A stretch of DNA of 56,333 bases from Thermoleophilia bacterium (GTDB lineage: Bacteria; Actinomycetota; Thermoleophilia; Gaiellales; SKUG01), in the NCBI GenBank assembly GCA_039811765.1, contig JBDHZF010000003.1, positions 1-56,333 on the forward strand. Reading direction: 5' to 3'. A model generated the notes under the pieces. That model searched no databases. It had not been told where the DNA came from and saw only the letters and a program-made list of their open reading frames with translations. Below are positions 6,525-51,200 of this stretch, piece after piece. Both the position numbers and the translations under genes were made by a program. Each line of letters opens with the position of its first letter. Position 1 is the first letter of the stretch.

Positions 6525-7463
6525 CTATGGGGTTCGTTCGTAGAAGGGTTTGAGCGAGCGCACGGTGGGTTCGAGGCGTTCGCGCTGGCCGGCGAGGTCG
6601 ACCATTTCCACTTGGCGATCGAGCGTGCGAAGCACTGGCGACAAATCCCGCCAGAGCGAGGCGAGCGCGAAGCGGCGAGCGTCGCCGTCCACGTCTGGAT
6701 CGAGTTCCACCGCCAGCACGAGCGACGGTTCGTCGTGGCGATCCGGCATGAACCATTGCAACTGCGTGCAGCGCGTGACGACCTCGTGTTCGGCGAGCAA
6801 GGTCGCGACGGCGTCGCGCGCGTCGTCGGGCATCTCGTCCTCGGCTGGCCCCACCACGACTTCCACGCCCTCGTCGATCACTTCCGTGCCATAGCCGCGC
6901 GCGGAATCGATCACGTCCTGCACCATGCGCGGGGTGAGCAGCAACGCCTCGTCCCCACCCGGATTGATGACGATGTTCGGCGGACCATCGTGGCCGGTGC
7001 CCAGCAGGGGAAACAGGTCGCGAACGGCGAGCGCCACGTAGCGCCCGCCATCCGGAATGAACGAGCCGAGCGCGCCCTCGTCGGTAAACATGGGGACGAT
7101 GTCGCCCTGCACGTCCGGGTGCCGCACGAGCACGAAGCTCAGCTCCAGCTCGCCATCGAGCGTGAGCTCGCCCGAACCATCCGACCCCTCGATCTCTTGA
7201 TCCTCGGGCACGAGCGCGATCAGCGTGGCGGAGAGCAAACCCGCGAACAGGCGCTTGGCAAGTTCGGGATCGTTCTCGCCACGCCGTGGATCGTTGAGCG
7301 AGCGGATCAGCGGCTCGTTCTCGAAGAACACGTGCGTGGGCAGCGCGAACGCGCCATCCGCGTCATCGCTCGATTCTTCGTCGGACGGTTCGGCATCGGC
7401 CTCCGGCCAGTCGCCGGAGGTCGAATCCTCGTCTTCGCGCTCGTCGTCGTGCTCGTGCCACAC
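6525..7463 (-). CDS. SseB family protein with SseB C-terminal domain
   Basis: Acidic N-terminus, VPMFTD and NIVINPGG motifs, then a C-terminal domain (EVVVGPAE..EPSLVLAVE); GAGGA upstream of GTG. Confidence 0.75.
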   Translation of the reverse strand: MWHEHDDEREDEDSTSGDWPEADAEPSDEESSDDADGAFALPTHVFFENEPLIRSLNDPRRGENDPELAKRLFAGLLSATLIALVPEDQEIEGSDGSGELTLDGELELSFVLVRHPDVQGDIVPMFTDEGALGSFIPDGGRYVALAVRDLFPLLGTGHDGPPNIVINPGGDEALLLTPRMVQDVIDSARGYGTEVIDEGVEVVVGPAEDEMPDDARDAVATLLAEHEVVTRCTQLQWFMPDRHDEPSLVLAVELDPDVDGDARRFALASLWRDLSPVLRTLDRQVEMVDLAGQRERLEPTVRSLKPFYERTP

Positions 7464-7525
7464 ATGTCCATCCTCGCATGGCCGCATGACACGCGCACGC
7501 CCGCCCGGGCACGTAGTATCCCCCA

Positions 7526-8566
7526 ATGCGAATCGGCATCCTCACTGGGGGCGGCGACTGCCCCGGATTGAACGCGGTCATCTCATCGGTGGCGCGGCGA
7601 AGCTGGGACCACGGCCACGAAATGGTCGGGTTCACCTATGGCTGGCGCGGCGTGATCGAGGACGACGTGATCCCCCTCACGCGCGACAACGTGCGCGGCA
7701 TCATGCGCGAGGGCGGGACGATCCTGCGCTCGAGCGGCGACAACCCGGCACACGGCGGCGATCGACCCGAACGCGTGATGGCGACCATCGCGAAGCACGA
7801 AATCGACGCGCTCGTCGTGGTCGGCGGCGAAGGCACGATGAAGGGCGCGCTGCACATGCACCGCGAGCACGGGTTGCCCGTGATCGGCGTGCCGAAAACG
7901 ATCGACAACGACCTGCCGGGCACGGAGCTCACGGTCGGATTCGACAGCGCGTTGGCGATCGCCACCGAGGCACTGGATCGACTCGCCACGACGGCGGAAA
8001 GCCATGACCGCGTGATGGTGTGCGAGGTCATGGGCCGCACCGCCGGATGGCTCGCGATGTACGCGGGCATCGCTGGCGGCGCGGACGTCATCTTGTTGCC
8101 GGAAATGGCGATGACAGTGGAGGACGCCGCCGACATCGTTCGCAAGCGCCACGGCCAGGGTCGCGACAGCTCGCTGATCGTGGTCGGCGAGGGGTACGAG
8201 CCGATTTCGAGCGGCGGGATCTTCGACGACGTCACGATCGACCAGCCACTCGACGCGTACGGCTATCCGCGACTGGGCGGCGTCTCGCACTACGTTGCGG
8301 ACGCGATCGAGAAGATCACCGGGTTCGAGACTCGCGTGACGATCCTCGGGCACGTGCAGCGCGGCGGCCCGCCCACGGCGCGCGATCGCGCGCTCGCGTC
8401 TCGCTTCGGGTTCCTCGCGGCGGATCTCGTGAACGACGGCCGCTTCGGCCTGCTCACCGCACAAGTGGGACGCGACGTCACCGCAGTGCCGCTGGAGCAA
8501 ACCGAGGGCGAAGCACGCGTGATCCCGCACGACTGGTTCCCGTTCGTCCAGTCGTTCATGGGATGA
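7526..8566 (+). CDS. pfkA: 6-phosphofructokinase
   Basis: ILTGGGDCPGLNA, GGTIL, PKTIDND, EVMGR and LGHVQRGG motifs. Confidence 0.95.
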   Translation: MRIGILTGGGDCPGLNAVISSVARRSWDHGHEMVGFTYGWRGVIEDDVIPLTRDNVRGIMREGGTILRSSGDNPAHGGDRPERVMATIAKHEIDALVVVGGEGTMKGALHMHREHGLPVIGVPKTIDNDLPGTELTVGFDSALAIATEALDRLATTAESHDRVMVCEVMGRTAGWLAMYAGIAGGADVILLPEMAMTVEDAADIVRKRHGQGRDSSLIVVGEGYEPISSGGIFDDVTIDQPLDAYGYPRLGGVSHYVADAIEKITGFETRVTILGHVQRGGPPTARDRALASRFGFLAADLVNDGRFGLLTAQVGRDVTAVPLEQTEGEARVIPHDWFPFVQSFMG

Positions 8567-8576
8567 CGCCGAGGTG

Positions 8577-9224
8577 TCAGTCGCGGGCGGCGGCGTCCGC
8601 GTACGCCGCGAGCGCGCTGGCGAGGCCCGTGTCGAGGTGCCCCTCGTCGAGCAGGAGCGCGTCCACGCCGGCGCGTTGCAGACGAGCGACGTGCTCGAGC
8701 GCGGCGATCGACTCGCTGAGCACGGGCCACCCGGCGGGGATCGCGGCGAGCAGGTCGAGCGTTCGATCCACATCCACGCTGCCGCCCGCGTCGCGATTGT
8801 CGACGTGCAGCACGTCGGCGCTGCCATCCACCACGCGCTCGATCTGCGCCTCGTCGTGCACCGTCACCACGACTTCCATGCCGCAGTCGTGCGCGGCGTC
8901 GAGCACCGCCGAATCGGCGTCGTCGTCAGGCAGCAGCAGCGCGTCGGCGCCGGCGTCGCGCAACGCCGCCACGCGCGACACGTCGTCCACTCCTCCGCGC
9001 GCGATGATCGGCAGCGCGCACGCGTCGCGCACGGCGCGGATGTCAGCCACGCCGAATCCGGCGTCGACCGACAAGCTGATCGCGATCGCGCCGGCCTGTT
9101 CGCACTCCGCGGCGATGCGCGCGATGTCGGCCGGCGCGCAGCGCGGCTCCACGATGAACGCGAGCTCGTCGGCGCTCAACACTTCGGTGAGCGAGCGAGC
9201 AGTCTTCGTGCCGTCTGCGTCCAT
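8577..9224 (-). CDS. degenerate indole-3-glycerol-phosphate synthase (TrpC)-like TIM barrel
   Basis: TrpC pattern GAIAISL, LPII, GADALLL, VH.E, NRD..VD, VLSES, GVDALL is present, but catalytic residues are altered. Confidence 0.72.
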   Translation of the reverse strand: MDADGTKTARSLTEVLSADELAFIVEPRCAPADIARIAAECEQAGAIAISLSVDAGFGVADIRAVRDACALPIIARGGVDDVSRVAALRDAGADALLLPDDDADSAVLDAAHDCGMEVVVTVHDEAQIERVVDGSADVLHVDNRDAGGSVDVDRTLDLLAAIPAGWPVLSESIAALEHVARLQRAGVDALLLDEGHLDTGLASALAAYADAAARD

Positions 9225-9229
9225 CGGGT

Positions 9230-9940
9230 TCAGCGCCTGACCTCTCGTGCGTGTCGTTCCTGGTCCACGATCGCGAGCGCGGCGCCGCTGCCCACGCGAA
9301 CCGCGCCCGCCACGAGCATCGCCTCCGCGTCGCCCAGCGTCGCGATGCCGCCCACCGCGATGATCGCGATGTCGTGCGGCAGTTGTTCGCGCAGTTCGCG
9401 AATATGCCGTTCGGTGATCGCTCGCGCCTGATGCCCGGAACCGGTCTGCAGGAACCCTGCCGGCGAATCGTACAATCGTTCGAGCACGGGCTGCAGACGT
9501 GGAAGGTCGAGCATCGTGGTCTCGAGCACGACGCTGAGCTCGCCACGCCCGCGCGCGCTGTTGAGCGACGACCACCACGCATGGCCGAGCAGCACGTCGA
9601 CTTCTTCGGCAAGCGCGGCCGGGCCCGCGACCTCGTCCTCGATCAGCGAGTGGTCGAGCATCACCGCGAGTTCGTGCGCGCCGTCGCGAATCGCGCGATC
9701 GCACGCGGCGACGCGCACGTCCACGCGGTCTTGGCCATATGGAAAGCCGATCGCGGCGCGAATGCGCGTGTCGCTTCCGGCGAGCGATTCGGCGGCGAGC
9801 GGCACGTGCACGGGCCACACGCAGACGGCGGCGAGGTGCGCCTCGCCCGCGCGCTCGCACGCGGCGACCACTTCCTCGCGCGTGATCAGCGGCTGCAACA
9901 AGTGCAGCTCGAGGCTCTTCGCGATCGAGATGCCGCTCAC
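9230..9940 (-). CDS. degenerate deoxyribose-phosphate aldolase (DeoC)-like TIM barrel
   Basis: AAVCVWP, IGFPYG, VLET, GGIAT and AGAVRVG match DeoC; Schiff-base Lys is absent; GTG overlaps the upstream stop. Confidence 0.8.
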   Translation of the reverse strand: MSGISIAKSLELHLLQPLITREEVVAACERAGEAHLAAVCVWPVHVPLAAESLAGSDTRIRAAIGFPYGQDRVDVRVAACDRAIRDGAHELAVMLDHSLIEDEVAGPAALAEEVDVLLGHAWWSSLNSARGRGELSVVLETTMLDLPRLQPVLERLYDSPAGFLQTGSGHQARAITERHIRELREQLPHDIAIIAVGGIATLGDAEAMLVAGAVRVGSGAALAIVDQERHAREVRR

Positions 9941-10248
9941 GAGAGCAACCACCCCAGCAGCGCGACCACCGCCAGCAGCGCCAAGGCGATGACGATCAAC
10001 GGAATCAGCAGCAGGCGCGCGCCGCCGGGCGCGACGCTGCCGCGCGGAACCTCGCCGTACGTCGCGCGCTCCGTGCGCGAGCCTTCGCGAAGCTGCGCCG
10101 ACACTTTGCCCTTCGGTCCCACGTCACCGGAGAGCCAGCCGGGCACGCGCGCGCGGCGCGCGTCCGTCTCTCCGTACGTTGCGTCCTCAGCGTCGGCTGC
10201 CATGCGCTCGAGATCTTCCGCTCGCTGCTTGTCGGGTCGGTCGTGCAT
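9937..10248 (-). CDS. small C-terminally anchored membrane protein
   Basis: C-terminal hydrophobic helix; TAGCAT 7 nt before ATG (leaderless); GTGA coupling to the next gene. Confidence 0.7.
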   Translation of the reverse strand: MHDRPDKQRAEDLERMAADAEDATYGETDARRARVPGWLSGDVGPKGKVSAQLREGSRTERATYGEVPRGSVAPGGARLLLIPLIVIALALLAVVALLGWLLS

Positions 10249-10258
10249 CGAACCGATG

Positions 10259-11206
10259 CTACAGCCCCGCGCGAGCGAGCCACGAGGCGTCGTCGCGCCA
10301 ATGCTTGCGAACCTTCACGCGAAGATCGAGGTGGATTCGCTGGTCGAGCTGTTCCTCGATCATCGCGCGGGCGGCGATGCCGATCGCGCGCACCTGCTCG
10401 CCGCCCTTGCCGACCACGATCCCCACCTGGCTTTGCCGCTCCACCCAGATCGTGCAGGAGACGCGCAGTCGATCGGGATCTTCTGGATCGACGAGCATGT
10501 CGTCCACCGTCACCGCGCTCGCGTGCGGCAGCTCGTCGCGAAGATGTCGCAGCGTGGCTTCGCGCACGTACTCGGCGATGCGTTCTTCGTCGCGCATGTC
10601 CACCACGTCGTCGTCGCCGAACCATGCAGGGCCCTCGGGCACGAGCGCGACGAGCTCGTCGAGCAGCGCGTCCACCCCATCGCCCGACTTCGCGCTGATC
10701 GGCACGAGCGCCGCGAATTCGCGTCCGTCGAGCAGCTCCTGGAGTTCGACGATGCGTCGGGCGACGAGGCCCTTGTCGCGGGTTCGATCCACTTTGTTGG
10801 GCGCGATCACCACGGGCTTGCCGCTGTCGAGCACGAGCTGCGCGACGCGGCGTTCGCCGGCGCCGGGTTCGTCCATCACGTCGATCACCCAGAGCACGAC
10901 GTCCACGTCGTTGAAGGATTGTTCCACGGATTGCTGCATGCGCTCGGTCATGCGGTCCATCGGCTTCTGGCTGCCGGGCAGGTCGACGAACACGAGCTGC
11001 GCGTCGTCTCGACGCACGGCGGCGCGAACGATGCGACGAGTGGTCTGCGCGATGGGCGAGACGATCGCCACGTGATGGCCGACGATCCGGTTCACGAGCG
11101 TGGACTTGCCGGCGTTGGGGCGACCGGCAACCGCGACGAATCCGCTGCGGCGCACGTCGCTGCTCGGATCCTTCGGACCGAAGAACGCGTCGACGGGGTT
11201 GGTCAC
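10259..11206 (-). CDS. era: GTPase Era
   Basis: GRPNAGKST, QTTR, DLPG, NKVD, ISAK and KH-domain IVVGKGG motifs. Confidence 0.95.
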   Translation of the reverse strand: MTNPVDAFFGPKDPSSDVRRSGFVAVAGRPNAGKSTLVNRIVGHHVAIVSPIAQTTRRIVRAAVRRDDAQLVFVDLPGSQKPMDRMTERMQQSVEQSFNDVDVVLWVIDVMDEPGAGERRVAQLVLDSGKPVVIAPNKVDRTRDKGLVARRIVELQELLDGREFAALVPISAKSGDGVDALLDELVALVPEGPAWFGDDDVVDMRDEERIAEYVREATLRHLRDELPHASAVTVDDMLVDPEDPDRLRVSCTIWVERQSQVGIVVGKGGEQVRAIGIAARAMIEEQLDQRIHLDLRVKVRKHWRDDASWLARAGL

Positions 11207-11649
11207 TCGACCCCCAGCGCGGCGGGAACGAATCCCGCGGGCAGCAGGCTGCGCACGGCCATCTCCACGAGCTCGCCGTCGTGCATGAACGCGATGCGCG
11301 CATCGGGCACGAGTTCGAGCAGGAACTGGCGGCACATTCCGCACGGTTCGCCAGACGAGCCGTCCACGTGCACTGCCACGAGATCCACGTCGGCGAGGTC
11401 GCGCCCCTCGGCAACGGCCCGCACGAGCGCGGTTCGTTCGGCGCACACCGTCAGGCCGTAGGACGCGTTCTCCACGTTGCATCCGGTGACGACGTCGCCG
11501 TCGCGTTCACCCGCGCCACGAAAGCGCAGCGCGGCGCCCACGCGAAATCGCGAGTACGGAACGCGCGCGCGCAGCGAGGCTTCTCGTGCGACCTCGCGCA
11601 GCTCGACGAGTGGCGGCGACGCTGACGTGATCGTGGCGACTTGATCCAT
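11203..11649 (-). CDS. cdd: cytidine deaminase
   Basis: PYSRFRVGAA, GCNVENASYGLTVCAE and PCGMCRQ; TAGAAT 7 nt before ATG. Confidence 0.93.
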   Translation of the reverse strand: MDQVATITSASPPLVELREVAREASLRARVPYSRFRVGAALRFRGAGERDGDVVTGCNVENASYGLTVCAERTALVRAVAEGRDLADVDLVAVHVDGSSGEPCGMCRQFLLELVPDARIAFMHDGELVEMAVRSLLPAGFVPAALGVE

Positions 11650-11693
11650 GCGGCCCATTCTAAGGCTCGTGCAGGTCGTGCGCGCCCGTCGCT

Positions 11694-12296
11694 TCACCCG
11701 ATCGGCACGAGCACGGGCGCGTCAGGGGCTGGCGCGGAAGCGGACGTTGGCGCGGGCGCGGGCGTTGGTGCTGGCGCGGGAGTTGGCGCTGGCGCGGCAT
11801 GGTATGTCGACGCCGGCGGCGTACTCGTGACGGGAGACGGCGTAGGCCGCGAGACGCGCGCCGGCGTCGATGTCGACTTGCGATGGCGCGTCGTGCCGTT
11901 TGGACGATCGATGCGCTGCGGCAGCGATTCGGCCGAAGCATCGTCGGAATCGGACCCGTTTGCGCCGACTTCTCCTTGCGTCGCGGCTGGGCGCGGATCA
12001 CCCGCAGCAATGTCCTGTTCCTGAATCGGAGTCGATGCCGCGGTTCGGGGCATGTCATCGTCGCGTCCAGGCACGGGCACCAACAACACGATGCTCACAA
12101 GCGCGACCGCGACGATCGAGCCACGGCGCACGAGCTTGCGACGTCGCGCATCGCGCTCGAGCTGCTCCGGCGTGGGTGGCGGATCGAGCAGGAAATCGCG
12201 CACGTCCACCGGCTGGTGCGCGACGGTCGGCGCGCCCATCAGCGCGCCGAATTGATCGTGCAAGCGGGCAGTTGCGTCGTCCGAGGTGGTGTCCAT
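11694..12296 (-). CDS. Pro/Thr-rich single-TM hypothetical protein
   Basis: One TM helix followed by a low-complexity PAPT tail; upstream region resembles that of comEA. Confidence 0.7.
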   Translation of the reverse strand: MDTTSDDATARLHDQFGALMGAPTVAHQPVDVRDFLLDPPPTPEQLERDARRRKLVRRGSIVAVALVSIVLLVPVPGRDDDMPRTAASTPIQEQDIAAGDPRPAATQGEVGANGSDSDDASAESLPQRIDRPNGTTRHRKSTSTPARVSRPTPSPVTSTPPASTYHAAPAPTPAPAPTPAPAPTSASAPAPDAPVLVPIG

Positions 12297-12380
12297 GCCT
12301 GCATCGTCGAGCAGAAAGTGTCACGAAAGACGCGCACTTTGTCACAACTCTGCAACGAAATTCATGAGATCCCGTGACAC
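12297..12380 (-). promoter_or_regulatory. promoter element shared with comEA (copy A)
   Basis: 59/84 ungapped identity with 39183-39266; GTCAC repeats; GACGAT -10-like box 6 nt before ATG. Confidence 0.75.
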
Positions 12381-12386
12381 GTTCGC

Positions 12387-13478
12387 TCAGGCGGCGCTGT
12401 GAGCCGCCGCAGGAAGCAGCAGCACGATCGACATCGCCTGCGCCGCGGGCGAGCGCGATTCCAGCTGCAGATAGGTGTCACCAGCCGGCAGATCCACGAC
12501 CACCGCCGCACCGCTCTGCGGCGGATCGCCCGGACGCCACCACACGCCGTCCGTGCCCGACAGCGACAGCCCTGGCGCGCCCACCCCGCTCCACGTGACG
12601 CGAATCGCGGCGCGCGTGGGCGTGGCCAATCGCAGCCACGTGCCCCACGTCGTGCCCGCATCGATCGCGATGTCCCATGCAGGGCCGTCGACCCATGCGT
12701 CCTCGATGCCGGGCGCCTCGCGAGGCGCCTGCACGAGATCGGCTCCGCCCGGCATCGCCAGCGCGGCGTCCAACACCTGCTCGACGCCGCCAACCTCGCG
12801 CCACAGGGCCAATCCGCCACACCCAATGATCGGGATCGCCACGGACGTCGCCAATCCGAACGCAACGAACCCTGCGTGCGGCACCTGCACCACGAACACC
12901 AACGCCACCAGCGACGCCGGCAAAGCGAATGCCGTCGTTGCCGCAAGCAGCAGCCAGACCACGCCGAACGCTGCGGGCTTGCTCGCACGCGCCGTTTCGA
13001 GCGCCACGCGCGGCGTCCAGCCCACGTCCCCCGACGCGACCGCCGCAGTCACGAACACGGCCAACGCGGGCGCGAACGCGGTCACGATCATTCCCACGAG
13101 CGGCACGAGCAGGAACCCGAGCAGGTCCACCGCGCCGCCGAGTTGCATGGCGCCCCACAAGGCGAACGCGAATGGTCCAATCGCAAGGGTCAGCTGCGCG
13201 ACGAGTCGCGGCAAGAGCGCGAGCACATCGCCCGGAAGGTCGGACGGTTCGGTGTCGTAGCCGCGTTCGCCACGCACCGCCAGGCGCATCGACAGCGCCG
13301 CGAGCAGCAACGCGACGCACCCCTCCACCGCGACGCGAACGATCGTCGAGCTGCCGAGCCGATCGCCGCCGAGCGCCGGCAGCGACAACGCCACCACGCC
13401 GATCGCGAGCAGCATCAACTGACCGCGCGCCGACACGCGCAGCAGGCGAAGCGTTCGCTTCCAAACCGCGTTCGTCAT
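12387..13478 (-). CDS. multi-pass membrane protein with soluble C-terminal beta domain
   Basis: About 6 hydrophobic helices, then a Trp-rich beta-type domain; start chosen at MTNAVW. Confidence 0.7.
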   Translation of the reverse strand: MTNAVWKRTLRLLRVSARGQLMLLAIGVVALSLPALGGDRLGSSTIVRVAVEGCVALLLAALSMRLAVRGERGYDTEPSDLPGDVLALLPRLVAQLTLAIGPFAFALWGAMQLGGAVDLLGFLLVPLVGMIVTAFAPALAVFVTAAVASGDVGWTPRVALETARASKPAAFGVVWLLLAATTAFALPASLVALVFVVQVPHAGFVAFGLATSVAIPIIGCGGLALWREVGGVEQVLDAALAMPGGADLVQAPREAPGIEDAWVDGPAWDIAIDAGTTWGTWLRLATPTRAAIRVTWSGVGAPGLSLSGTDGVWWRPGDPPQSGAAVVVDLPAGDTYLQLESRSPAAQAMSIVLLLPAAAHSAA

Positions 13479-39272: not shown

Positions 39273-42200
39273 CTACTTGCGCTTCTTGCCGCCCTTCTTG
39301 GCGCCGGGGCCGTCTTCTTCCTCTTCGTCGTCGTCCTTCTTGCGACCGGCGCGCAGGCGATGCATGTGCAGGTCTTTGCCGCCCTTGGCTGCTTGGCCCA
39401 GGCCCTTCGCGCCCGCGCCCTTCGCCGCGGCGCGAGCCACCTTGGACGCCGCGTCGCCGCGGAACACGTACGCCAGCGTGCCGGCGATGCCGCCCGCCAC
39501 GAGCAGCAGCGGCAGCCACAGCTTCCAGTTGTCGCCGAGCCACGACAGCGCCTTCGCGATCGGACCCTTCTTCGCCTTCGGCTCCTTGTCGGACGCGGCC
39601 ACGACCTCGTCCTCGAGCTGCGTGCCGGTCTTCAAGCCCGGCTTCTTCTTGGCGGACTTGCCGCTGCCCAGCCCCTCGGGCAGTCGCGTCTTGCCCTCGC
39701 TGGTGCGCTCGCTGCCCGCCCCCGTTCGACGCGAATTCGAATCGCTCTTGCTCGTCGACTTGGGACGCTTCGTGGCGGACGGAACCGTGCCGAGCGGCTT
39801 CTTCGTGGTGGAGTCGCCGTCCTCGTCGCCGAAGTCGTCGGTGCCCTTGTCCACGTCGTTGTCGCCGATCGCCACCACGATCGTGCTGACGGTGGCCAGC
39901 TTGTAGTTCGTGTCGTCGCTCGACACCTTGAACGTGATCGCGCCTTCGTGGTCGCCCTCGATCTCGTCGTCGTCGATCGCGGTCACCGTGAGCGTCTTCG
40001 CGTCGCGCCAGCTCGTCGGGCCGAGCACGATCGCGTCGCTGTCGACCTTCACCTGGTCGTCGCCGGTCGGCACGACCGTGACGTCGCTCGTCGGCTGGCT
40101 CGACAGTCGGAACGTCACGGTGTCGCCGGCGGCCGCGCCCTCCACGACCTTCGTCACGTCGCCGGTCTGGCCGACAACGATCGTCGCCTCGTCGTCGTCC
40201 GTGATGCTGGCGGCGACGCTCGCGAGCTCGACGTCCTTCCAACCCGGCGCGGTCGTCGTGATCGAATGCTTGATCAGGCCCGGATGCGGATCGGGCTCGT
40301 CCAGCGAATCCTGCACCGCGGCCACCTTCACCGTCTGTGCCTGGTTCCAGTTCGCGGGCGTGAACGTGAGCGACTTCGGATCGGGCGTCACCTGGTCGCC
40401 GCCGTCGATCGCGAGCGTGACGTCCGCCGACGGCGCGGCGGCCAGCGCGATGGTGTACGTGTCGGTCTGCCCGGCCTCGGTGAGCGTGGTCTTGCCGTCG
40501 CTCTCCACGATGGTGACGCCAGCCTTGTCGTCGTCCTTGATCGCCACGGACTGCGCAAGCGGCGTCGCGGCGCTGCCGGCGACGTACGCGATGTCGTTGC
40601 TCGTGAGCGCGAACGTGACGTTGCCGGTGTGGTCGCCCTCGACGACGACGTCCTGCACCGCGGTGAGCGTGACTTCTTGCGGCGTGCTCCAGTTCGTCGG
40701 CGTGAACGTCAGCGACGCGGGCGCGGCGCCGACCTGCGCGTCGCCGCTGACCGCGACCGTCACCGTGTCGGTCGGGATCGTGCCGAGCACCACGCTGAAC
40801 GTGTCGGTGGCGCCGCCCTCGGTCACGGCGTTCCCGCTGTCCGTCGGCGTCACGGTCACCGCCGCCGTGTCGTTGTCGGTGATCGTCACGTCCACCGGCG
40901 CGGCGGTCGCGGCGCCGTACGCCGGATCGGTCGACGCGAACGTGAACGTCACCATGCCCGGGTGCCCGTCCGGCTCGTCGACGTTGTCGTCCACCGCCGT
41001 CACGGTCACCGTCTGCGGCTGGTTCCAGTTCGTCGGCGTGAACGTCAGCGTGCCGGGCGTCGCGCCCACCTGCGGCGCGCCGTTGAGCGTGATCGTCACG
41101 TCGGCGTCCGGCTCGCTCTGCAGCACCACGTCGAAGCTGGCGCTCGGCCCGCCCTCGGCGAGCGCGATGGGTCCGCTCGGCGAGACGGTGATTCCGGAGA
41201 CGTCGTCGTCGGCGATGTCCACGTCCAGGTCGGCGATCGTCTTCGCGTCGTAGATCGGGTCGACGCTCGTCACGTCCCACGTGATCTTCGAGCCGTGCAC
41301 GCCCTGCGCCTTGGAGTCGTTGGTCGCGGTGAACGTGAAGGTGGCCGGTCCCTGCGTGCCCTTGGCGATCGTCACGCTCGCGGGAGCGACGGTGACCGCG
41401 CCGTTGCTCAGCGTCGGGGTCACGACGATGTCCTCGGCCGCGTCGGTTGTGATCCCGACGATGCAGGTCACGACGTGATCGGTCGCGGCGGGGTCCTCCG
41501 ACATCAGCAGGTGGCCTGTGCCGGCGTCGACGTTCCACGCCGGACCACCCGAGCAGTCGATCGCGGCGCTTGCGGCGTCGTCGTCGTCGATATGGAACGT
41601 GCGCGGCGCGATCGCGATCGGCGCGTACGCCGGGTCCAGCGGCGCGGCGATCGTGAAGCTCACCACGCCGTCGTGAGGGCTGGGCTCGGCCACCGCGTCG
41701 TTGGCCGCCTGCACGCGCAGCTGCTGCGGCACGTTCCAGTTGGTGGCGTCGAAGACGAGCACGGGCGCGTTGGGGAACAGCACCTGGCCGTCGTTGGTGG
41801 CGGTGACGGTGACCGAGCCTGCGGGCTGCGTCGCGAGCGCGATCTCGATGACGCGCTCGGTGCCGGTCACGTCGGCTTCCTGCATCGTCATGAGCGCGGG
41901 ATCGGTGACGACCACGTCGGCGATGTCGTCGTCGTCGATCGTCACCGTGGAGTTCGGCACGGTCAGCGCGTCGAAGTCGGGCGCGCCGCTGCTGGACGTG
42001 GAGAACGTCAGGTCGCTCGTGTGCGGTCCTTCCGCGATCGGGTCGTCGATCGGCTTCACGGTGACCGTCTGCGGCATGTTCCAGTCGCTCGTCGTGAACG
42101 TCAGCGTGGACGGCGACGGCGCCTCGAGCTGCGTCGTGTCCCACGCCACGTCGACCGTCACGTCGTCGACCGGTTGCGCGGTGAGCTCCACGGTGAACGT

Positions 42201-45200
42201 GTCGGTGGTCTGTCCGGCCTCGGCCACGTGCAAGCCGTCGCCCTCGTCCACCTTCACGCCGGCGACGTCGTCGTCGGCGACGTCCACGTTCACGTCGGGG
42301 ATCGCGAAGCCCTCGTACGCGGGATCGCTCACCGAGTGCACCGCGTGCACGATCGTGTCGGTCTCGGGACCCTCGACGAGATGGTCGTCGAACGCGGCGA
42401 CCGTCACCGTCTGCGGGGTGGCGGCATTGCTCGCGTCGAACGTGAGCGTGGACGGCGTGGCCACGACGTCGCCACCGCTCGTGAGATCCACCGTCACCGT
42501 GCCGGACGGCGTCGTGTCGATCGCGATCTCGTACGTGGCCGTGGCGGCGAGATCGCCTTCGTCCACGCCCGCGGCAGGCGTCAACGGCGTCACCGTGAAG
42601 CCAGCCGCGTCGTCGTCGGCGATGTCGAACGTCGCGTCGTCGATCGTGAGCACGCCCGTGTCGTAGTTCGGATCGGTCGACGCGGTGTCGTGCGTGATCG
42701 TCCCGTCGTGCGGGTCCGTCTCGACGACCACGTCCTGCACGGCGGTCACGCTCACCGTCTGCGCCGTGTTCCAGTCGGCGGGCGTGAACGTCAGCGACGC
42801 GGGGCTCGGCGTGACCTGGCCGTCGTCGGCGAGGTTCACGGTCACGTCGTGCGTCGGCTTGCTCGTGAGCTCCACGGTGTACGTGGCGGGCGGCAGCACA
42901 CCGGCCTCGTCGAGCTGGCCGGGCGCCGGCGCCTGCGTCACCTTCACGCCGGCGGTGTCGTCGTCCGCGATCTCCAGATCCATGTTCGCCGGGGTGAGCG
43001 CCGCGAACGCCGCGTCGCCGCCCATCGTGTGCGTGAGCGTGCCGCCGTGCGGGGTGCCCTCGTCCACCTGGTCCTGCACGCCGGTGACGGTCACGGTCTG
43101 CGGCGCGTTCCAGTTCAGGTTGGTGAACGTGAGCGTCGGCTTGTCCACGCTCGCCTGGCCGTCGGGCGACGCGATCGCGACGGTGACGTCGGTGAGCGGC
43201 TGCGCGGTGAGCACCACGTCGTAGGTGGCTGTGACGGAGCCGTCTTCGCTGATCGACAGCGGGCCGGGCGTGGCGGGCGTGAAGTCGATGCCCGCGGCGT
43301 CGTCGTCGGCGATGTCGAACGTGCGCGGGGCGACCGTGACGGCCGTGTACGTGGGGTCGCTGCCGCCGTCGACGCCGAAGCTCAGCACGCCGGTGTGTGC
43401 GCCCTCCACCGTCGGGTCGTCCTTCGCTCGGATCGCCACGGTCTGCGCGATGTTCCAGTTGGACGAGTCGAACGTGAGCGTCGACGGGTTCGGCGCGTCG
43501 AGCTGCGGATCGCCGACCAGCACGATCGTCACGGGCGTGAGCGGCATCGTGTCGAGCTGCACGCCCACGAGCTTCTCGGTGCCAGCCGGGTCGGCCTCGT
43601 CGAGGTCGAGGCTCGCGGGATCGGTGATCGTGATGCCCGCCACGTCGTTGTCGACGATGTTGGCGGTCGCATCGGGCACGGCGAGCGCGTCGAAGTTCGT
43701 GTCCGCGCTGGTCGTCGTGAACGCGATCGCGCCGGTGTGCGCACCCTCCACCACATGGTCGTCAACGACCTGCACGAGCACGGTCTGCGGGAGGTTCCAG
43801 TCGGCGGGCGTGAAGTGCAGGCTCGTCGGGGCCATGATCGTCGTCTGGCCGTCCGGGGTGGTGATCGCCACGTCGACGTCGTTGGCCGGCTCGGCGTCGA
43901 GCGCCACCGTGAAGCTGTCGGTGCCCGGCACGTTCGCCTCGTCGAGGTCGATGCCGCCCATGTCGTCGATCGTCACGCCCGCCACGTCGTCGTCGGCCAC
44001 CGCGACGTCCACGTCGGGGATCGTCACCGGCACGTACGAGGGGTCGCTCGCGGCATCCACCACCGTGTGCACGTGCTCGGTCTCCGGGCCCTCCACCAAG
44101 TGGTCGTCGACGGCGTTCACGGTGACGGTGACCGGCGTGGCGTAGTTGGCCGAGGTGAACGTGTAGGTCGACGGCGACACGATCGCGTCCGGACCCGCGC
44201 TCAGGTTCACGGTCACGTCGCTCGCCGGGATCGTGTCGATGTACAGGTCGTACGTCGCGCCGGTTGCCGCGTCGGCCTCGTCCACGCTCGGCGCGGGCGA
44301 TGCCGGGTCGAAGTGGAAACCGGGGATGTCGTCGTCGGCGATGTCGAACGTCGCGTCGTCGATCGTGAGGCCCGTGTAGTTCGCATCCGTGCTGGTGGCC
44401 GAATGCGCGACCGTGCCCGTGTGCGGGGTCGGCTCGGTGACGTGGTCGTCCACGGCCTTCACGACCACGTGCTGGACGACGTTCCAATTCGCGGCGGTGA
44501 ACGTGAGGGCGGTCACGCCGCCGTCGACCTCCACCTGCGCGTTCGGCGTGAGCGCGATCGTCACGTCGGCGGTCGGCTGGCTGTCGAGCACGACGTCGTA
44601 GGTCGCGCTCGGCACGCTGCCGTCTTCGGCGAGCGGCTGCGGCGCCGGGCTCTGCGTCACCGTCACGCCCGCGGTGTCGTCGTCGTGGATGTCGAAGTCG
44701 ATCGGCGCAAGCGTCTCGGCGTTGTAGATCGGGTCGGCGGACGTCACCGCGAACGTCACGTTGGACACGTGCGGATCGGCCTCGTCGACGTCGTCGTTCA
44801 CCGCGGTGAAGGTGACGGGCACCGGACCGTGCGAGCCAGCTGGGATCGTCACGGACGCGGGGCTCGCGGTCATCTGCGCGGAGTCGGTGGTGATGGCGAT
44901 CGTCACGTCCTGCGCGGCGTCGGTTCCGAGCTGCATGTCGCACACCACGTCGTGCGTCGCGTCCGCGACCGTCTCGGACAAGTCCACATGGCCGCCGCCG
45001 TTCACCGCGAAGTCGGCGCCCGGCGTGCAGGTCACGTCCACGTCCGCCATGTCGTCGTCGGCGATCTGGAAGGTGCGGTCGGCGATCGTCAATGCCGTGT
45101 AGAGCGGATCGCTGGTCGGATCCACCGCGAGCTTCAGCACGCCCGGGTGCGGGCTTGTTTCGGCCACGTGGTCGTCGACCGCGCGCACCGCGACGCTCTG

Positions 45201-48200
45201 CGGAATGTTCCAGTTCGTGTTGTCGAACGTGAGCGTGGTCATGCCCTGCACGCCGATCTGGGCGTCGGCGGTCAGGTTCACCGTCACGGGCGCGGGCGGC
45301 GCGGTCTTCAGCGCGATCGTCGTCGTGCGCTCGGTGCCGGCGACGTCGGCCTCGTCCAGCGTCATGTCGGCCGAGTCGACGATGTCGAACCCGGGCACGT
45401 CGTTGTCGAGGATGTGCGTGATCGCGTCGGGCGTGGTCAGGCCGGCGAACGCCGTGTCCGCGCTCGCGGTGGTGAAAGCGATGTGGCCGTCGTGCGGGCT
45501 GGCCTCGGTCACGTGGTCGTCGACCACGGTCACGGTCACGACCTGCGGCGTGTTCCAGTCGCTCGTCGTGAAGGTCAGCGACGGCGTGTCGACGGTCACC
45601 TGCGCGTCGGGCGTCACGTCCACGGTCACGTCGCTGGTCGGCTGCGCCTTAAGCGCGACGGTGAAGGTCTTCGTGGTCGCCGCGTCGGCCTCGTCGAGGT
45701 CGAGGTCCGGCGTCGGGACCACGTCGAGCTCGGCGACGTCGTCGTCGGCGATGTCCGCGGTCACGTCCGGGATCGTCGTGCCGAGGTAGCCAGGATCGCT
45801 CGCGCCGGCATCGATCACGTGCGTGATCGTGTCGTGATGCGGCGTGGCCTCCGGGAAGTGGTCGTCCACCGCGGTGACGGTGATCGTCACCGGCGTGGCA
45901 TAGTTGGCGGGCGTGAAGGTGTAGTCGGCCGGGGCAACGGTCACCTGTCCGCTGGTCGCCGCGAAGTCCACCTTCACCGGACCGGCCGGCTCGGTGTCCA
46001 TGTACAGGTCGTACGAGTAGGTGGTCGACACGTCTGCCTCGTCGAGGCTCGGCGCGGGCGTCGCCGGGTCGAAGTGGAAGCTCGGCACGTCGTCGTCGTC
46101 GATGTCGAAGTCGGCGTCGGCGATCGGCAGCGCCGCCACGAGCGAGTACGCCAGGTCGAGCGAGTCGCTCGAGTGCGTGATCGTGCCCGTGTGCGGCGTG
46201 AGCTCGGTCACGTGGTCGTCGTGCGCCTTCACGGTCACGTGCTGCACGGCGTTCCAGTTCGCGGGCGTGAACGTGAGCGTGGTCACGCCGCCGTCGATGT
46301 CCACCTGCGCATCGGCGGTGAGCGTGATCGTCACGTCGCTCGACGGCTGGCTGTCGAGCACAACGTCGTACACGGCGTCGGGCAGGCTGCCGTCCTCGGC
46401 GAGATGCTGCGGCGACGGCGTCTGCGTCACGGTCACGCCCGCGGTGTCGTCGTCGTGCACGTCGATCGTCTCGGGCGCGGGGGTCACCGCCGCGTACGCG
46501 GTGTCGGCGCTCGCCACGGTGAACGCGACCAAGCCCGGATGCGGATCCGCCTCGTCCACGTCGTCGTCGTGCGCCTTCACCTCGAAGTGCTGCGGCGTGT
46601 TCCACGTGGCGCTCGTGAAGGTGAGCGTGGTCGGACCGATCGCGTCGAGCTGCGCGTCGGGCAGCAGTGTGACGGTCACGTCCGCGGTCGGGATCGTGGC
46701 GAGCACGACGTCCCACTTGCGGGTGGTGGTCGCGCTGGCCTCGTCCACGTCCGTGCCGCCGCCGGGGGTGATCAGCACGTCGCTCGTGTCGTTGTCCGTG
46801 ATGTTCGCGGTCACGTCCGTGTTCGCGAGCGCGTCGTAGGTCGGGTCGGCCGCCGCGACGCTCGTCGGGTCCAGCGTGACCGTGCTGGTGTGCGGGGACG
46901 CCTCGTCGATCGAGTCGTCCACTGCTTCCACCGTGACGTCCTGATCGACGTTCCAGTTGGTGGAGTCGAACGTGAGCGTGGTCGGGCTGGCGTCCACCTG
47001 CGCGGCGTCGAACGTCACGGCGACCGTGACCGTGCCCACGGGCTGGCTCTTCAGGTGCACCTTCACCGTGCCGTTCGTGGGCCCGGTCTCGTCGATCGCG
47101 ACGCTCGTCACGTCGGTGACGATGCCCGCGTCGTCGTCGTCGTGGATCGACGCGTCCACGCTCGCCACGGTGAGCGAGTTGAAGTTCGCGTCGGCGCTCG
47201 TCGTGGTGAAGTCGATCGGGCTGGTGTGCGGTTCGTTCTCGTCGATCGGGTCGTCCACGGCGGTCACGGTGACGGTCTGCGCGGTGTTCCAGTTCGTGTC
47301 GTCGAAGGTGAGCGTCGCGGGCGACACGGTCACCTGGCCGGCGGCGTTGGCGACGTGCACGTCCACGGTCTTGCCCGCGGCGGGCGAGGCAGTGAGCTTC
47401 ACCTCGAACGTGTCGGTCGCGGCGACGTTCGCCTCGTCCACCGAGATGCCGCCGAGATCGTCCACGGTCACGCCCGCGGCGTCGTTGTCGGTCACGTCCG
47501 CGACCGCGTCGGGGATCGTCACGGCGGTGAAGTTCGGGTCGCTGGAGGCGTTCACCGACAGCGCGACGTGCGCCGGGTGCGGGCTCGCCTCGATGAAGCC
47601 GTCGTCCACCGCGTCCACGGCCACCTGCACGCCGGTGTTCCAGTTCGTCGCGTCGAGCACGACGCTGGCCGGGGTCGCGGTGGCTTGCGCGTCGGGCGCG
47701 AGGTCGATCGTCACCGGCGAGTCCGGCTCGGCGGCGAGCGTGATCGTCAGGTGGTCGCCCGTGCCGCCCTCGGCGATCTGGAAGCTGCCGCCGTCCGGCG
47801 TCACGATCACGCCGGCGGCGTCGTCGTCGAGCACGTTCACGGTCTCGCTCGCCGCGGTCACGGCCGCGTAGAAGGCGTCCGCGCTGGTCACCGTGTGCGC
47901 GATCGTGCCGGTGTGCGGGCCCTCGATCTTGTGGTCGTCGAACGCCTGCACGTGCACCGTCTGCGGGGAGTTCCAGTTCGCGTTCGTGAAGGTGAGCGTC
48001 GTCTCGGTGGTCGTCACCTGCGCGTTCGGCGCGATCGCCACGGTCACGTCGGCGGTGGGCTGGCTGTCGAGCACCACGTCGTAGGCGTCGACCACGCTGC
48101 CGTCCTCCGCCACCGTGGTGTCCGCGCCCGTCGGGGTGATGGTGACGCCGGCCGTGTCGTTGTCGTGCACGTCCACGGTCTGCGCGGGGCCCGTCTCGCC

Positions 48201-51200
48201 GTTGAAGTTCGCGTCGGCGCTGGTCATCGCGTGCGCGATCGTGCCCGTGTGCGGGTCCGTTTCCTGGATCGGGTCGTCCACAGCCTCGACGTCAACGGTC
48301 ACGCCGGTGTTCCAGTTGCTCGAATCGAGCACGACGGACGACACGCTGGTCGTGACCTGCGCGTCGGGCGTGAGCGCCACGGTCACTGGCGCGCTCGGGA
48401 TGCTCGTGAGCGTCAGCGTGTAGGTGGCGATGAGCGTCTGGTCCTCGTCCGCCAGCAGACCACTCGCGGGCGTGACGACGAGGTCGGACGTGTCGTTGTC
48501 GTGGATCAGCGCGTCCACGGTGTCCGGCGTGAGCGCGGTGTAGCCGGCGTCCGCGGACGCGATCGTCATGTCGAGCGTGCCGGGATGCGGATCGGCTTCG
48601 TCGACGTGGTCGTCGATCGCCTTCAGCGTCACCGTCTGCGGCGTGCTCCAGTTCGTCGTCGTGAAGGTGATCGACGGCACGCTCCACTCGAGCTGCGTGC
48701 TGTCCGGCGTGAACGTCACGTCCGCGGTCGGCTGGCTGCCGAGCACGATGTCGTAGGTGGCGGTGGCGCCGCCCTCGGTCACGTCGAAGCCGGTGGTCTG
48801 GCTGATCAGGATCGCCGGGAAGTCGTTGTCCGCCACGTGGAACGTGACGTCGTCGATCGTCAGCACGCCGGTCCCGTAGTTCGGATCGGAGCTGGACGTG
48901 TCGTGGCTCACCACGCCGTCGTGCGGGTTGGCCTCGGCCACCGCGTCGTCGACCGGGTTCACTGTGACGTCTTGGTCCGTGTTCCAGTTCAGCGCCGTGA
49001 ACGTGAGCGTGGTCGGCGCGGTGGTCACCTGCGCGTCCGGCAAGATCGTGACGGTCACGTCGTCGGTCGGCTCGCTCTTGAGCTTCACCTTGTAGGTCTG
49101 GCCCGTCGCGGCGTCCGCCTCGTCGAGGTCGATCGACGGCGGCGGCGTCACGACCACGCCCGCCGTGTCGTTGTCCACGACGTGCACCGTCACCTGCGTG
49201 GCGAGGAGTCCGACGTAGTTCGGGTCGGCGCTGCCGGTGAGCGCGTCGATCGTGCCGGTGTGCGGGCCTTCCGCGATCGAGTCGTCGATCGCGGTCACGG
49301 TGACTGGCTGCGGCGTGTTCCAGTTGCCGGGAGTGAACGTGAGCGTGGTGGACGACAGCGTGACCTGCGTGCTGCTGAGCGTCACGGTCACGTTGGCCGT
49401 GGGCTGGCTCTGGAGAACGACGTTCACGACGTCCGTGGGGCCGCCCTCGGTCACGGTGGTGTCGGGGAGCGTCTCGTTCACGAGCACGCCGGCGTTGTCG
49501 TTGTCGGCGATGTCGAGGTCCATGTCGCCGAGCGTCAGCGCGGCGTAGACGGGATCCGCGCCGCCGGCCACGTGCGTGAGCTTGTCGGTGTGGGCGCCTT
49601 CGGCGATCGCATCGTCCACGGCGGTCACGGTGACAGTCTGCGCCGTGCCCCAGTTGCCGGGAGTGAACGTGAGCGTGGGCGTGTCGACGGTGGCTTGTCC
49701 CGCGAGCGCGGCGACGTCAATCGTCACGTTGCCGGTCGGCTCGGAGTCCAGCTTCACGTCGTAGCTGGCCGTGGCGCCGCCCTCGGCGATCGACAGCGGG
49801 CCGGGAAGCGCGGGCGTGAACGTGACGCCGGCGTTGTCGTCGTCGGCGATGTCGATCGTCTGCGACGGAACCGTCACCACGCCGTAGAACGCGTCCGTGC
49901 CCGCGGTGAGCGTGCCGGTGATCGTGGTGGTGTGCGCGCCCTCGGCGATCAGGTCCTGGACGATCGCGACGTCCACGTTCTGCGGGGTGGCCCACGTGGC
50001 CGGCGTGAACGTGTACGTGGTGGTGGTCGGCGCGCCGTCCGCGTCGCCCGCGAGCGTGATCGTCACCGTGTCGGTCGGCTGGCTGGTGAGCGACATCGCG
50101 TACGTCACGTTCGGGCCGCCCTCGGCGCCGCTCAGGCCGCTCGACGGCGCCAGCAGGATGCTGGCCGTGTCGTTGTCGGTGATCGCCACGTCGACGGGAG
50201 TGATCGTGAGCGCGCCCGTGTCATAGGCCGGCGCGGCGCTCGCGGTGTCGATCGTGATCTGCGTGCTGTGCGCGCCCTCCATCACGAAGTCGTCGTTCGC
50301 CACCACGTTCACGGTCTGCGGGATGTTCCACGTGGCGGGGGTGAACGTGAGCGGGGCCATCGCGACGAGCTGGCCGCCCTCGGTGAGGTTCACGGTGACG
50401 TCCGCGCCCGGGATGCTGTCGAGCACCACGGTGAAGCTGCCGTCCGGACCGCCCTCGCCCACGTTCAGCGTGGTCGGCGTCACGGTGACGCCTGGATCGT
50501 CGTTGTCGGTGATGTCCGCCACGACGTTGCTGACCGCGAGCGAGTTGAAGTTGGAGTCCGCGCTGGTGGTGGCGTGCACGATCGTGCCGTGGTGCGGGGA
50601 CGGCTCGGTGACGAGGTCGTCCACGGCGCCCACCGTGACGTGCTGCGGGGTGTTCCAGTTGGCCGCGGTGAACGTCAGCGTGGCGGCGCTGGTGGTGATC
50701 TGCGAATCGGGCGTGACGGTGACGGTGACGTCCGCGGTCGGCTCGGCGTCGAGCACCACGTCATAGTCCTCGGTGGCCCCGTCCTCGTCCACCGCGACGG
50801 TGGACTTGCTGATCGTGACGCCCGCGGCGTCGTCGTCGGTGACGTGCGCGACCACGTTCGGGATCAGCGTGGCGGGGCCGTAGTTGGGATCCGCGCTCGC
50901 GGAGGTGTGCACGAACGTCTGCGTGTGCGGGCCCTCCACCAGGTGGTCGGGCGTGCCGCTCACGGTGAGGATCTGCGGCGTGTTCCAGTTGGCGGCGGTG
51001 AACGTGAGCGTGCCGTGGTCCACCGATGCTTGCGGGCCGCCGGTGATCGTGATCGTCACGTCCGCGGTGGGCTTGCTGAGCAGCACGACGGAGTAGGTGT
51101 CGGTGGTCGCGCCCTCGTCCACGTCCGTGCTCGCGGCGGTCTCCACCACGGACACGCCGGCGGTGTCGTTGTCGTGGATCGACACGGCGACGTCGTCGGG

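Follow-up and report, generated by a model that had tools for sequence, protein, structure and literature searches.

Why should a bacterium maintain, behind era, two intact genes whose products have the barrel folds of deoxyribose-phosphate aldolase (DERA, encoded by deoC) and indole-3-glycerol phosphate synthase (encoded by trpC and abbreviated IGPS) and have lost the residues on which these two reactions depend? The question is posed by a stretch of 56,333 nucleotides from contig JBDHZF010000003.1 of a Thermoleophilia assembly, the whole of which is referred to here as the window, where the minus strand reads cdd, era, TM103, DeoL and TrpL, and pfkA converges on them from the plus strand (the names TM103, DeoL and TrpL, as well as aldH' used below, were coined in this analysis). 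The window is contig C3 of a host genome of 2.77 Mb in 221 contigs that is 86% complete and has ~69% G+C, and the lineage carrying DeoL and TrpL is one of uncultured Thermoleophilia from soil and wastewater. The answer that we favour, with a probability of about 0.5, is that DeoL and TrpL are superseded ancestral copies that have been retained as independent barrels, neither aldolase nor IGPS, and that probably bind a ligand.

DeoL is recognised by the deoC model TIGR00126 (97.1 bits, E 9.4e-28, model positions 3-209 of 211) and by solved DERAs in the PDB (E down to 7.5e-27). It has no match to PF01791, the DeoC family of Pfam, even at E <= 10, and its residues 169-228 match PF01180 (E 2.3e-8), the C-terminal phosphate-binding segment being still recognised. 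In an alignment with 6D33 and 6MSW the Asp has become A92, the Lys of xVxxET S136, the Schiff-base Lys Q165 and the second Lys I194, such that EVD or ELD reads ELA, FxKTSTG reads FLQTGSG and the Lys before xxGG is Ile; we take A92 and S136 to stand in the places of DERA Asp102 and Lys137. Across 81 DeoL-type sequences the Schiff-base position is Gln in 80, the Asp position Ala in 73 and the K137 position Thr in 77, and at the K201 position Val (40), Lys (21), Ile (18) and Thr (2) are found. In DERA itself Lys167 forms the Schiff base and is not exchangeable without loss of function, and Lys201 is also critical, as stated in PMC6244999.

The protein database holds ~80 homologues of DeoL at 45-100% identity, followed by a gap down to canonical DERAs at ~30%, and where the sources name the organism, for homologues of DeoL and TrpL alike, it belongs to the Thermoleophilia. 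Within 77 sequences of the DeoL family the fixed residues are E11 (77/77), A92 (71/77), T136 (74/77), Q165 (76/77) and H170 (63/77), together with Gly turns (G169 77/77, G197 77/77, G198 74/77 and G217 73/77) which, on an assumed correspondence to E. coli residues, are presumably the phosphate-binding turns after strands 6, 7 and 8; the Arg after GG is lost. Eighteen DERA-pocket positions, located through a mapping of the E. coli numbering that we likewise assume, show higher conservation than the remaining 218 (0.83 vs 0.72, permutation p 0.025). The AlphaFold2 model of DeoL is a complete eight-stranded barrel (predicted local distance difference test, pLDDT, 93.7; predicted template modelling score, pTM, 0.91) and its top Foldseek matches are all DERA, the best being 6MSW with a template modelling (TM) score of 0.85. 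Searches of the ESM Atlas with DeoL and TrpL returned only DERA-like and IGPS-family clusters. Binding of flavin mononucleotide, a candidate raised by Pfam matches to DHO_dh and NMO, was set aside, the matched segment being a generic phosphate-binding turn that is common to DERA.

TrpL matches the IGPS family PF00218 with 67.7 bits (gathering score 27, E 1.2e-18), over model positions 68-238 of 254 only, and the best TrpC equivalog of NCBIfam with 72.7 bits; the query used for its searches, 8577-9227, carries one extra N-terminal Pro. When aligned with 3TSM and 6Y88 its E-x-K-x-x-SPS loop has become VEPRCAP, LRKDF has become IARGG, VEVH is VTVH and INNR is VDNR. According to PMC7681013, Lys53, Lys110, Glu159 and Asn180 (S. 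solfataricus numbering) are essential for IGPS activity; in the window they are Arg, Arg, Thr and Asp, respectively. The protein database contains ~70 homologues, and across 71 TrpL-type sequences K110 is Arg in all 71, E159 is Ser, Thr, Ala or Gly and never Glu, N180 is Asp in at least 90%, and K53 is Lys in 58 and Arg in 13, the Arg group including the window's clade. E51 is kept in 71/71, and the equivalents of R182 and E210 are kept in TrpL.

Both phosphate turns of TrpL have been altered, with ESGI reading ES-I (the Gly deleted in 71/71) and VGE reading LDEGH (the Gly replaced by Asp in 71/71), and the motifs NIDNR, ISES and DALLLDEGH are invariant, with acidic and His residues newly placed close to the C-terminal face of the barrel. 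The window's clade is reduced further, having neither the N-terminal helices nor the loop after strand 1 nor a family-specific insertion (212-245 aa against 260-280 aa for most other TrpL-type sequences), and it reads ARGG where other TrpL-type sequences read ARDF. The AlphaFold2 model is again a complete eight-stranded barrel (pLDDT 93.2, pTM 0.90), the top Foldseek matches are IGPS (best 3QJA, TM 0.85), and the gene sits outside any trp operon, between DeoL and pfkA.

These observations bear out much of what the first-pass annotation had proposed from the letters of the window. The open reading frames (ORFs) and their junctions, a GTGA overlap and a 5-nt gap, are as it described them; every substitution that it listed for the DeoC-like and the TrpC-like protein is seen in the alignments, and the losses are family-wide (81 and 71 homologues); and both proteins are homologous to the deoC and trpC models but score below the equivalog cut-offs (97.1 against 117.3 and 72.7 against 260 bits). 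The canonical genes that it suggested should be sought are present on other contigs of the host genome, deoC as a 318-aa long type (169 bits) with an aldehyde dehydrogenase gene behind it on C14, and trpC (255 bits) within trpG-trpD-trpC on C49. Canonical deoC is found in addition to DeoL in 6/6 family genomes tested, and DeoL and the long-type DERA are ~30% identical.

Neither internal stops nor frameshifts were found in the orthologues examined, and ratios of non-synonymous to synonymous substitution (dN/dS) were estimated by the Nei-Gojobori method for the window and five genomes of the same genus, the ratios being rough because synonymous changes approach saturation and are limited by G+C. 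In pairs that include the window the ratio is 0.26-0.34 for DeoL, 0.25-0.37 for era, 0.36-0.54 for TrpL and 0.29-0.62 for TM103, and among three relatives it is 0.09-0.20, 0.08-0.28, 0.16-0.30 and 0.32-0.92, respectively. By this measure DeoL is under purifying selection comparable to that on era, TrpL under looser selection and TM103 weakly constrained, in agreement with the earlier suggestion that selection has acted here. With the catalytic residues lost, DeoL can be no class I aldolase and TrpL no IGPS by the known mechanisms. Furthermore, since that loss goes together with an absence of frameshifts, with purifying selection and with active paralogues, selection for a role beyond aldol cleavage and indole synthesis is indicated. 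The features expected of a pseudoenzyme, namely lost residues, an active paralogue and purifying selection, are found together (dN/dS 0.09-0.54, no stops), and a new role is thus a fair inference from barrels that are intact, eroded and selected, although it does not extend to the single membrane-tethered unit that had been envisaged.

The distribution and position of DeoL point to where it came from. Orthologues at E <= 1e-30 are present in 8 of the 61 closest genomes, which are the window's own and seven of the eight others of its family, and in the eighth a copy cut by a contig end was found with a hidden Markov model; the 52 genomes of four further families in the order yielded none at this threshold. 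The order cdd-era-TM103-DeoL-TrpL is kept in 5/5 genus relatives. In two other genera of the family the locus is shorter, with G206 reading cdd-era-DeoL-TrpL and then a convergent pfk, DeoL lying directly after era, and G208 reading era-DeoL and then a convergent pfk, with no TrpL at the locus or found anywhere in a genome that is 52% complete. Elsewhere in the class, in 24/29 loci of other orders, the gene directly behind era is the best match to DeoL, and the 29 short DERAs look active, with K137 and K201 in 29/29, K167 in 28/29 and Asp or Glu at position 102 in 29/29. In 21/29 loci of these orders hisI is directly downstream of the short deoC, and the full era-linked order deoC-hisI-trpE-trpG-trpD-trpC was observed in four.

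In the DERA tree DeoL forms one clade (support 100, starred; stem 0.86) that joins the era-linked short DERAs (Shimodaira-Hasegawa approximate likelihood-ratio test, SH-aLRT, 94, not starred) and is far from the long-type deoC clade of its own family (98, starred). The two types of deoC are distributed differently: the long type (E <= 1e-40) is found in 33/35 genomes of the order's other families, in 0/94 of the three families f6, f7 and f9, which keep the active short type, and in 13/36 of f5, and the short era-linked type (E <= 1e-5) in 94/94 of f6, f7 and f9, in 34/36 of f5 and in 29/35 of the order's other families, where the matches are mostly weak and partial (27/32 in f2). Because of its position, the tree and these distributions, the best reading of DeoL is that it is the former era-linked deoC, which the long type has superseded. 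In one genome of another order (locus L023, G079:C4:82635-83291) a short DERA followed by hisI-trpE has Thr at the Schiff-base position (DFATTCT) and the same genome also carries a long-type deoC; an independent loss of the Lys after gain of a second deoC is possible there. A metagenomic sequence, P0082, which has Glu at K167 and Gly at D102, groups near L023 in the tree.

TrpL, for its part, is probably the positionally conserved old copy of trpC. The first-pass annotation had drawn attention to the erosion of two adjacent, unrelated enzymes, and both are indeed eroded, but their adjacency may have a historical explanation in the era-deoC-hisI-trpEGDC arrangement of other orders: if hisI-trpEGD were lost or moved elsewhere, deoC and trpC would end up side by side as neighbouring relics. 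Related to TrpL in position is a family of short IGPS-like proteins (alignment A3; 195-218 aa) in which an N-terminal motif peculiar to the family, RFxxAISEGDGIS, is invariant; in a phylum sample of 401 genomes the profile of this family finds 21, all within the class. Profile matches outside the order were considered as further members and rejected (7/19 checked, each directly after trpD), those that were inspected being canonical trpC genes of hisI-trpEGDC operons.

A scan of species genomes for the short family gave 122 relatives, of which 80 loci were kept (L062-L141), from records titled Gaiellaceae, Gaiellales, Thermoleophilia or uncultured Actinomycetes, and 77 of these have enough upstream sequence for neighbours to be counted. 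The commonest layout is cdd, era, an M3-like HEAGH peptidase, long deoC, aldH, aldH', in some loci a DERA-like gene, then the IGPS-like gene and a convergent pfk, the last being present in 65/77 loci. The gene just upstream of the IGPS-like gene is DERA-like in 39 loci, aldH' in 37 and the peptidase in one. Among 38 full-length DERA-like neighbours K137 and K201 are kept in all, and 37 are without K167 (Q 20, S 8, E 5, V 3, A 1), L129 being the sole one to keep it. Two genomes of the sister family had already shown long deoC, aldH, aldH', a DERA-like gene with Gln or Ala at the Schiff-base position and a 195-aa IGPS-like gene on one strand, and the idea that DeoL is an innovation of one family was dropped on account of these two genomes and then of the 39/77 loci. 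The window's family thus shows the most eroded state of an order-wide pair situated between era and pfk. DERA-like genes without the Lys (for example L058:2044-2748 and L098:5264-5968) reach 162-204 bits on TIGR00126, where the cut-off is 117.3, and automatic annotation will therefore call them deoxyribose-phosphate aldolase even though the Schiff-base Lys is missing.

Two further genes of these loci deserve mention. The product of aldH', at 272 aa, matches only the N-terminal half of PF00171 (20-251 of 461) and its gene follows deoC-aldH directly; it is found on C14 of the host genome (23577-24452, equal to L142:1501-2376), at L058:2773-3591 and in 68/77 loci among L062-L141, with identities of 74-96% across related loci where it is whole and of 55-60% for the host's copy. 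As it is too short to contain the catalytic half, aldH' may encode a third pseudoenzyme. Between era and the deoC cluster lies a gene for a protein of ~480-514 aa with the motif HEAGHALH (L098:3686-5230; 59/77 loci among L062-L141), which has a faint match to M3 oligoendopeptidase (18.5 bits) and was not found in the window.

The sequence of events that we propose begins with an ancestral arrangement in which a short deoC would have followed era with hisI-trpEGDC behind it. In the window's order a long-type deoC with its aldehyde dehydrogenase, and a separate trpGDC, would have taken over the canonical reactions, and the old copies would then have lost the Schiff-base Lys (DeoL) and the acid/base residues (TrpL) whilst staying intact eight-stranded barrels. 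The old pocket of DeoL may still be in use, either to bind a ligand or for a different reaction, and its presumed Gly-rich phosphate loops and conserved, uncharged pocket suggest that it would bind a phosphosugar without cleaving it. The ligand of TrpL is likely to differ from the IGPS substrate carboxyphenylamino-deoxyribulose phosphate (CdRP), as both of its phosphate turns have been rebuilt as the acidic DNR, SES and LDEGH motifs. DeoL and TrpL would act independently of one another, and TM103 would be a genus-level addition coupled to DeoL.

Several observations weigh against this reading. A careful tree places all canonical IGPS, those of the class included, in one clade (96/91, starred), with TrpL and the short IGPS-like family outside it on long stems (0.91 and 1.06, respectively), joined at an unresolved node; this could fit a fast-evolving lineage derived from trpC and could equally fit an older paralogue. 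The change of both phosphate turns makes simple retention of the old ligand unlikely for TrpL, and the window's TrpL clade, with its relaxed dN/dS of 0.36-0.54 and its extra deletions, may be heading towards loss. Furthermore, about half of the related loci (37/77) have lost the DERA-like gene, which is dispensable there, and the variety of residues that replace K167 among lineages fits a lost site better than a new catalytic one.

The most serious alternative, to which we give appreciably less credence than to retention as ligand-binding barrels, is that DeoL, TrpL or both are neofunctionalised enzymes that catalyse a different reaction in the same barrel, for example a step on a phosphosugar such as an isomerisation, or one that depends on a metal or on acid-base chemistry. 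Such a role would account for the strong fixation of the new residues in DeoL (E11, A92, T136, Q165 and H170), for the new acidic and His residues in the invariant motifs of TrpL, for selection on DeoL as strong as that on era and for a pocket more conserved than the remainder of the protein, and the near-invariant Gln at the Schiff-base position in the window's family could have acquired a new role. However, in sister families the same position is Gln, Ser, Glu, Val or Ala, such that no new catalytic residue is common to the order, no family or structure besides DERA and IGPS is matched, and the loss of the DERA-like gene from 37 related loci speaks against an enzyme as well.

It is also conceivable, although unlikely, that the Lys-less DERA, the IGPS-like protein and aldH' form an order-wide pseudoenzyme module, kept over a long span of evolution beside or near the active genes of deoxyribose catabolism, that binds intermediates and regulates or scaffolds DERA and aldehyde dehydrogenase (ALDH), for example against toxic acetaldehyde, with TM103 recruiting it to the membrane in the window's genus. 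A related and likewise unlikely proposal is that DeoL, TrpL and aldH' are subunits that join the active long DERA and ALDH of the deoxyribose branch and regulate them or channel acetaldehyde. Related loci do string dead and active genes together on one strand, from long deoC through aldH and aldH' to the Lys-less DERA and the IGPS-like gene, the high identity of aldH' where it is whole shows it to be strongly constrained, and the host genome keeps deoC-aldH-aldH' together on C14. Against this, in the window's family DeoL and TrpL are on different contigs from deoC-aldH-aldH', DeoL and the long DERA share only ~30% of their residues, and an interaction of any kind is purely hypothetical.

That the two genes are functionless relics in slow decay, their ORFs still undisrupted, we regard as improbable. 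DeoL and TrpL are redundant with the canonical copies, the DERA-like gene is gone from about half of the related loci and the window's TrpL clade has shed its N-terminal helices and two loops under relaxed selection, all of which would be expected of decay; but 81 and 71 homologues, down to ~45% identity, retain an intact ORF, the dN/dS values are clearly below 1, with DeoL matching era, both barrels are modelled with confidence, the DeoL pocket is conserved and so are the start/stop overlaps.

TM103 has to be considered before the last alternative. It has no match in Pfam or NCBIfam and is present in 6/6 genomes of the genus (the window and five relatives), with a conserved core of DAT[YFW], then VPGxxSGD[VL]G[PV]KG and SAQ[LM]R, and then a C-terminal hydrophobic helix. 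In all six the TM103 stop codon and the DeoL start codon overlap (NTGA or TGATG), and TM103 is absent from the two other family genera with a complete locus; it is a real gene that is translationally coupled to DeoL and was added at the level of the genus. The first-pass annotation had described it as leaderless, which is not supported, as its ATG lies 10 nt past the era stop on the same strand. A predicted complex of DeoL with TrpL (score 0.00, mark 0.32, without controls) was used neither for nor against pairing.

Least probable of all is the first-pass annotation's own proposal of a membrane-tethered pseudoenzyme pair, in which a complex of DeoL and TrpL, held at the membrane by TM103, acts as a sensor of or scaffold for sugar phosphates in connection with pfkA, for although the TM103-DeoL overlap and the TM103-DeoL-TrpL order hold in all six genus genomes and a convergent pfk is a conserved neighbour, the trio is conserved as a unit in that genus alone, G206 being without TM103 and G208 without TM103 and TrpL, 37/77 related loci have the IGPS-like gene and no DERA-like one, TM103 is weakly constrained (dN/dS up to 0.92), no fused or longer form of DeoL was found in a search for one, which is weak evidence, and convergent genes share no common transcript. 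Because each barrel occurs alone in relatives and TM103 in one genus only, an obligate membrane-tethered trio is unlikely; what survives of the pfkA connection is a conserved synteny (65/77 loci), from which a shared function does not follow.

The features of the locus are listed below. The DeoL start codon GTG (9940-9938) overlaps the TM103 stop codon TGA (9939-9937), the DeoL stop is followed after five bases (9229-9225) by the TrpL ATG at 9224, and the stops of pfkA and TrpL are 10 nt apart. The cdd gene is upstream of era in relatives too, and era orthologues within the genus are 65-79% identical.

Features of the cdd-era-TM103-DeoL-TrpL locus and its convergent neighbour in the window
Feature	Coordinates	Strand	Description and evidence
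cdd, cytidine deaminase	11203..11697	-	PF00383 E 1.5e-15; first gene of the conserved cdd-era block
era GTPase, longest ORF	10259..11482	-	MMR_HSR1 and KH_2 domains
TM103, 103-aa ORF	9937..10248	-	Hydrophilic N-terminal part and one C-terminal hydrophobic helix (tail-anchored)
DeoL, DERA-fold barrel, 236 aa	9230..9940	-	TIGR00126 match; without the Schiff-base Lys and other catalytic residues
TrpL, IGPS-fold barrel, 215 aa	8577..9224	-	PF00218 match; without K53, K110, E159, N180 and the N-terminal helices
pfkA, convergent neighbour	7526..8566	+	PF00365 E 4e-101

At 407 aa, the longest ORF of era shares 280 nt with the 3' part of cdd, and since relatives align only from about residue 95-113 the true start of era is probably much further downstream. 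A scan of 8300-12400 for promoter and terminator consensus sequences gave zero sites and is uninformative at 69% G+C. On the far side of pfkA an SseB-family gene (6525-7526, minus strand) diverges from it at a single base, 7526, such that nothing lies between them if the real genes are the longest ORFs. Elsewhere in the window a giant minus-strand ORF (39273-56333) encodes at least 5,686 aa and runs past the window end; it is rich in Thr, Ala, Asp and Val, its third-position G+C is 0.957 and two pieces of 2,000 aa from it have no Pfam match at E <= 1e-5. Its plus-strand mirror of 5,522 aa is a composition artefact, and the strong AT skew from 40 kb onward is due to the giant ORF.

How, then, do DeoL and TrpL compare with what is known? 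DeoL shares with the short-type DERA of Bacillus halodurans (BH1352, 6D33/6MSW) its fold, sequence homology over the full length (phmmer E 3.5e-26, 30% identity) and presumably the Gly-rich phosphate turns, and with the active enzyme of sister orders its position after era, and it differs in that the Schiff-base Lys is Gln, the Asp is Ala and the other two Lys are Ser and Ile. TrpL shares with the IGPS of Mycobacterium tuberculosis (3QJA), Pseudomonas aeruginosa (6Y88) and Brucella (3TSM) the barrel and the equivalents of E51, R182 and E210, and differs in the four essential residues, the SPS loop, the N-terminal helices, both phosphate turns and the lack of a trp operon around it. With the short IGPS-like family TrpL has in common a place by a DERA-like gene in the era region, convergent on pfk, the replacement of K110 by Arg (19/22 in the short family, the other three having Leu or His), a position outside the canonical IGPS clade and the motifs ERTxDLLAxVPxG and RAGVDA; the two are, however, only ~35-38% identical, and the short family is without E51 and mostly acidic at E159 (D 13, E 7 of 22). 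Its DERA neighbour, unlike DeoL, keeps K137 and K201 and passes the deoC cut-off. A natural gradient of erosion is thereby given, from the active short DERA of sister orders, through the Gaiellaceae-type proteins that have lost the Schiff-base Lys only, to the window's family in which all four charged residues are lost.

Database sources name the homologues of DeoL and TrpL deoxyribose-phosphate aldolase and indole-3-glycerol phosphate synthase, and because of these names, and because Lys-less copies pass the deoC cut-off, metabolic reconstructions will over-count both activities; these homologues should not be annotated as DERA or IGPS. The barrels of the two enzymes are favoured scaffolds in enzyme design, and folded natural variants with emptied active sites are of practical interest in that field. 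No description of natural DERA homologues without the Lys, or of IGPS paralogues without the catalytic residues, was found in the limited collection of literature searched, and the nearest concept for DeoL and TrpL is that of the bacterial pseudoenzyme or repurposed paralogue. An established case is HisZ, a dead paralogue of histidyl-tRNA synthetase that serves as the regulatory subunit of ATP phosphoribosyltransferase, to which DeoL and TrpL are alike in being dead paralogues of housekeeping enzymes kept by selection beside an active copy; HisZ has a demonstrated partner and role, whereas DeoL and TrpL have a proposed role only and occur without each other. Bacterial pseudoenzymes are rarely documented; the dead or repurposed copies of textbook enzymes described here number two, or three in related loci, and are conserved in many uncultured genomes beside their active replacements.

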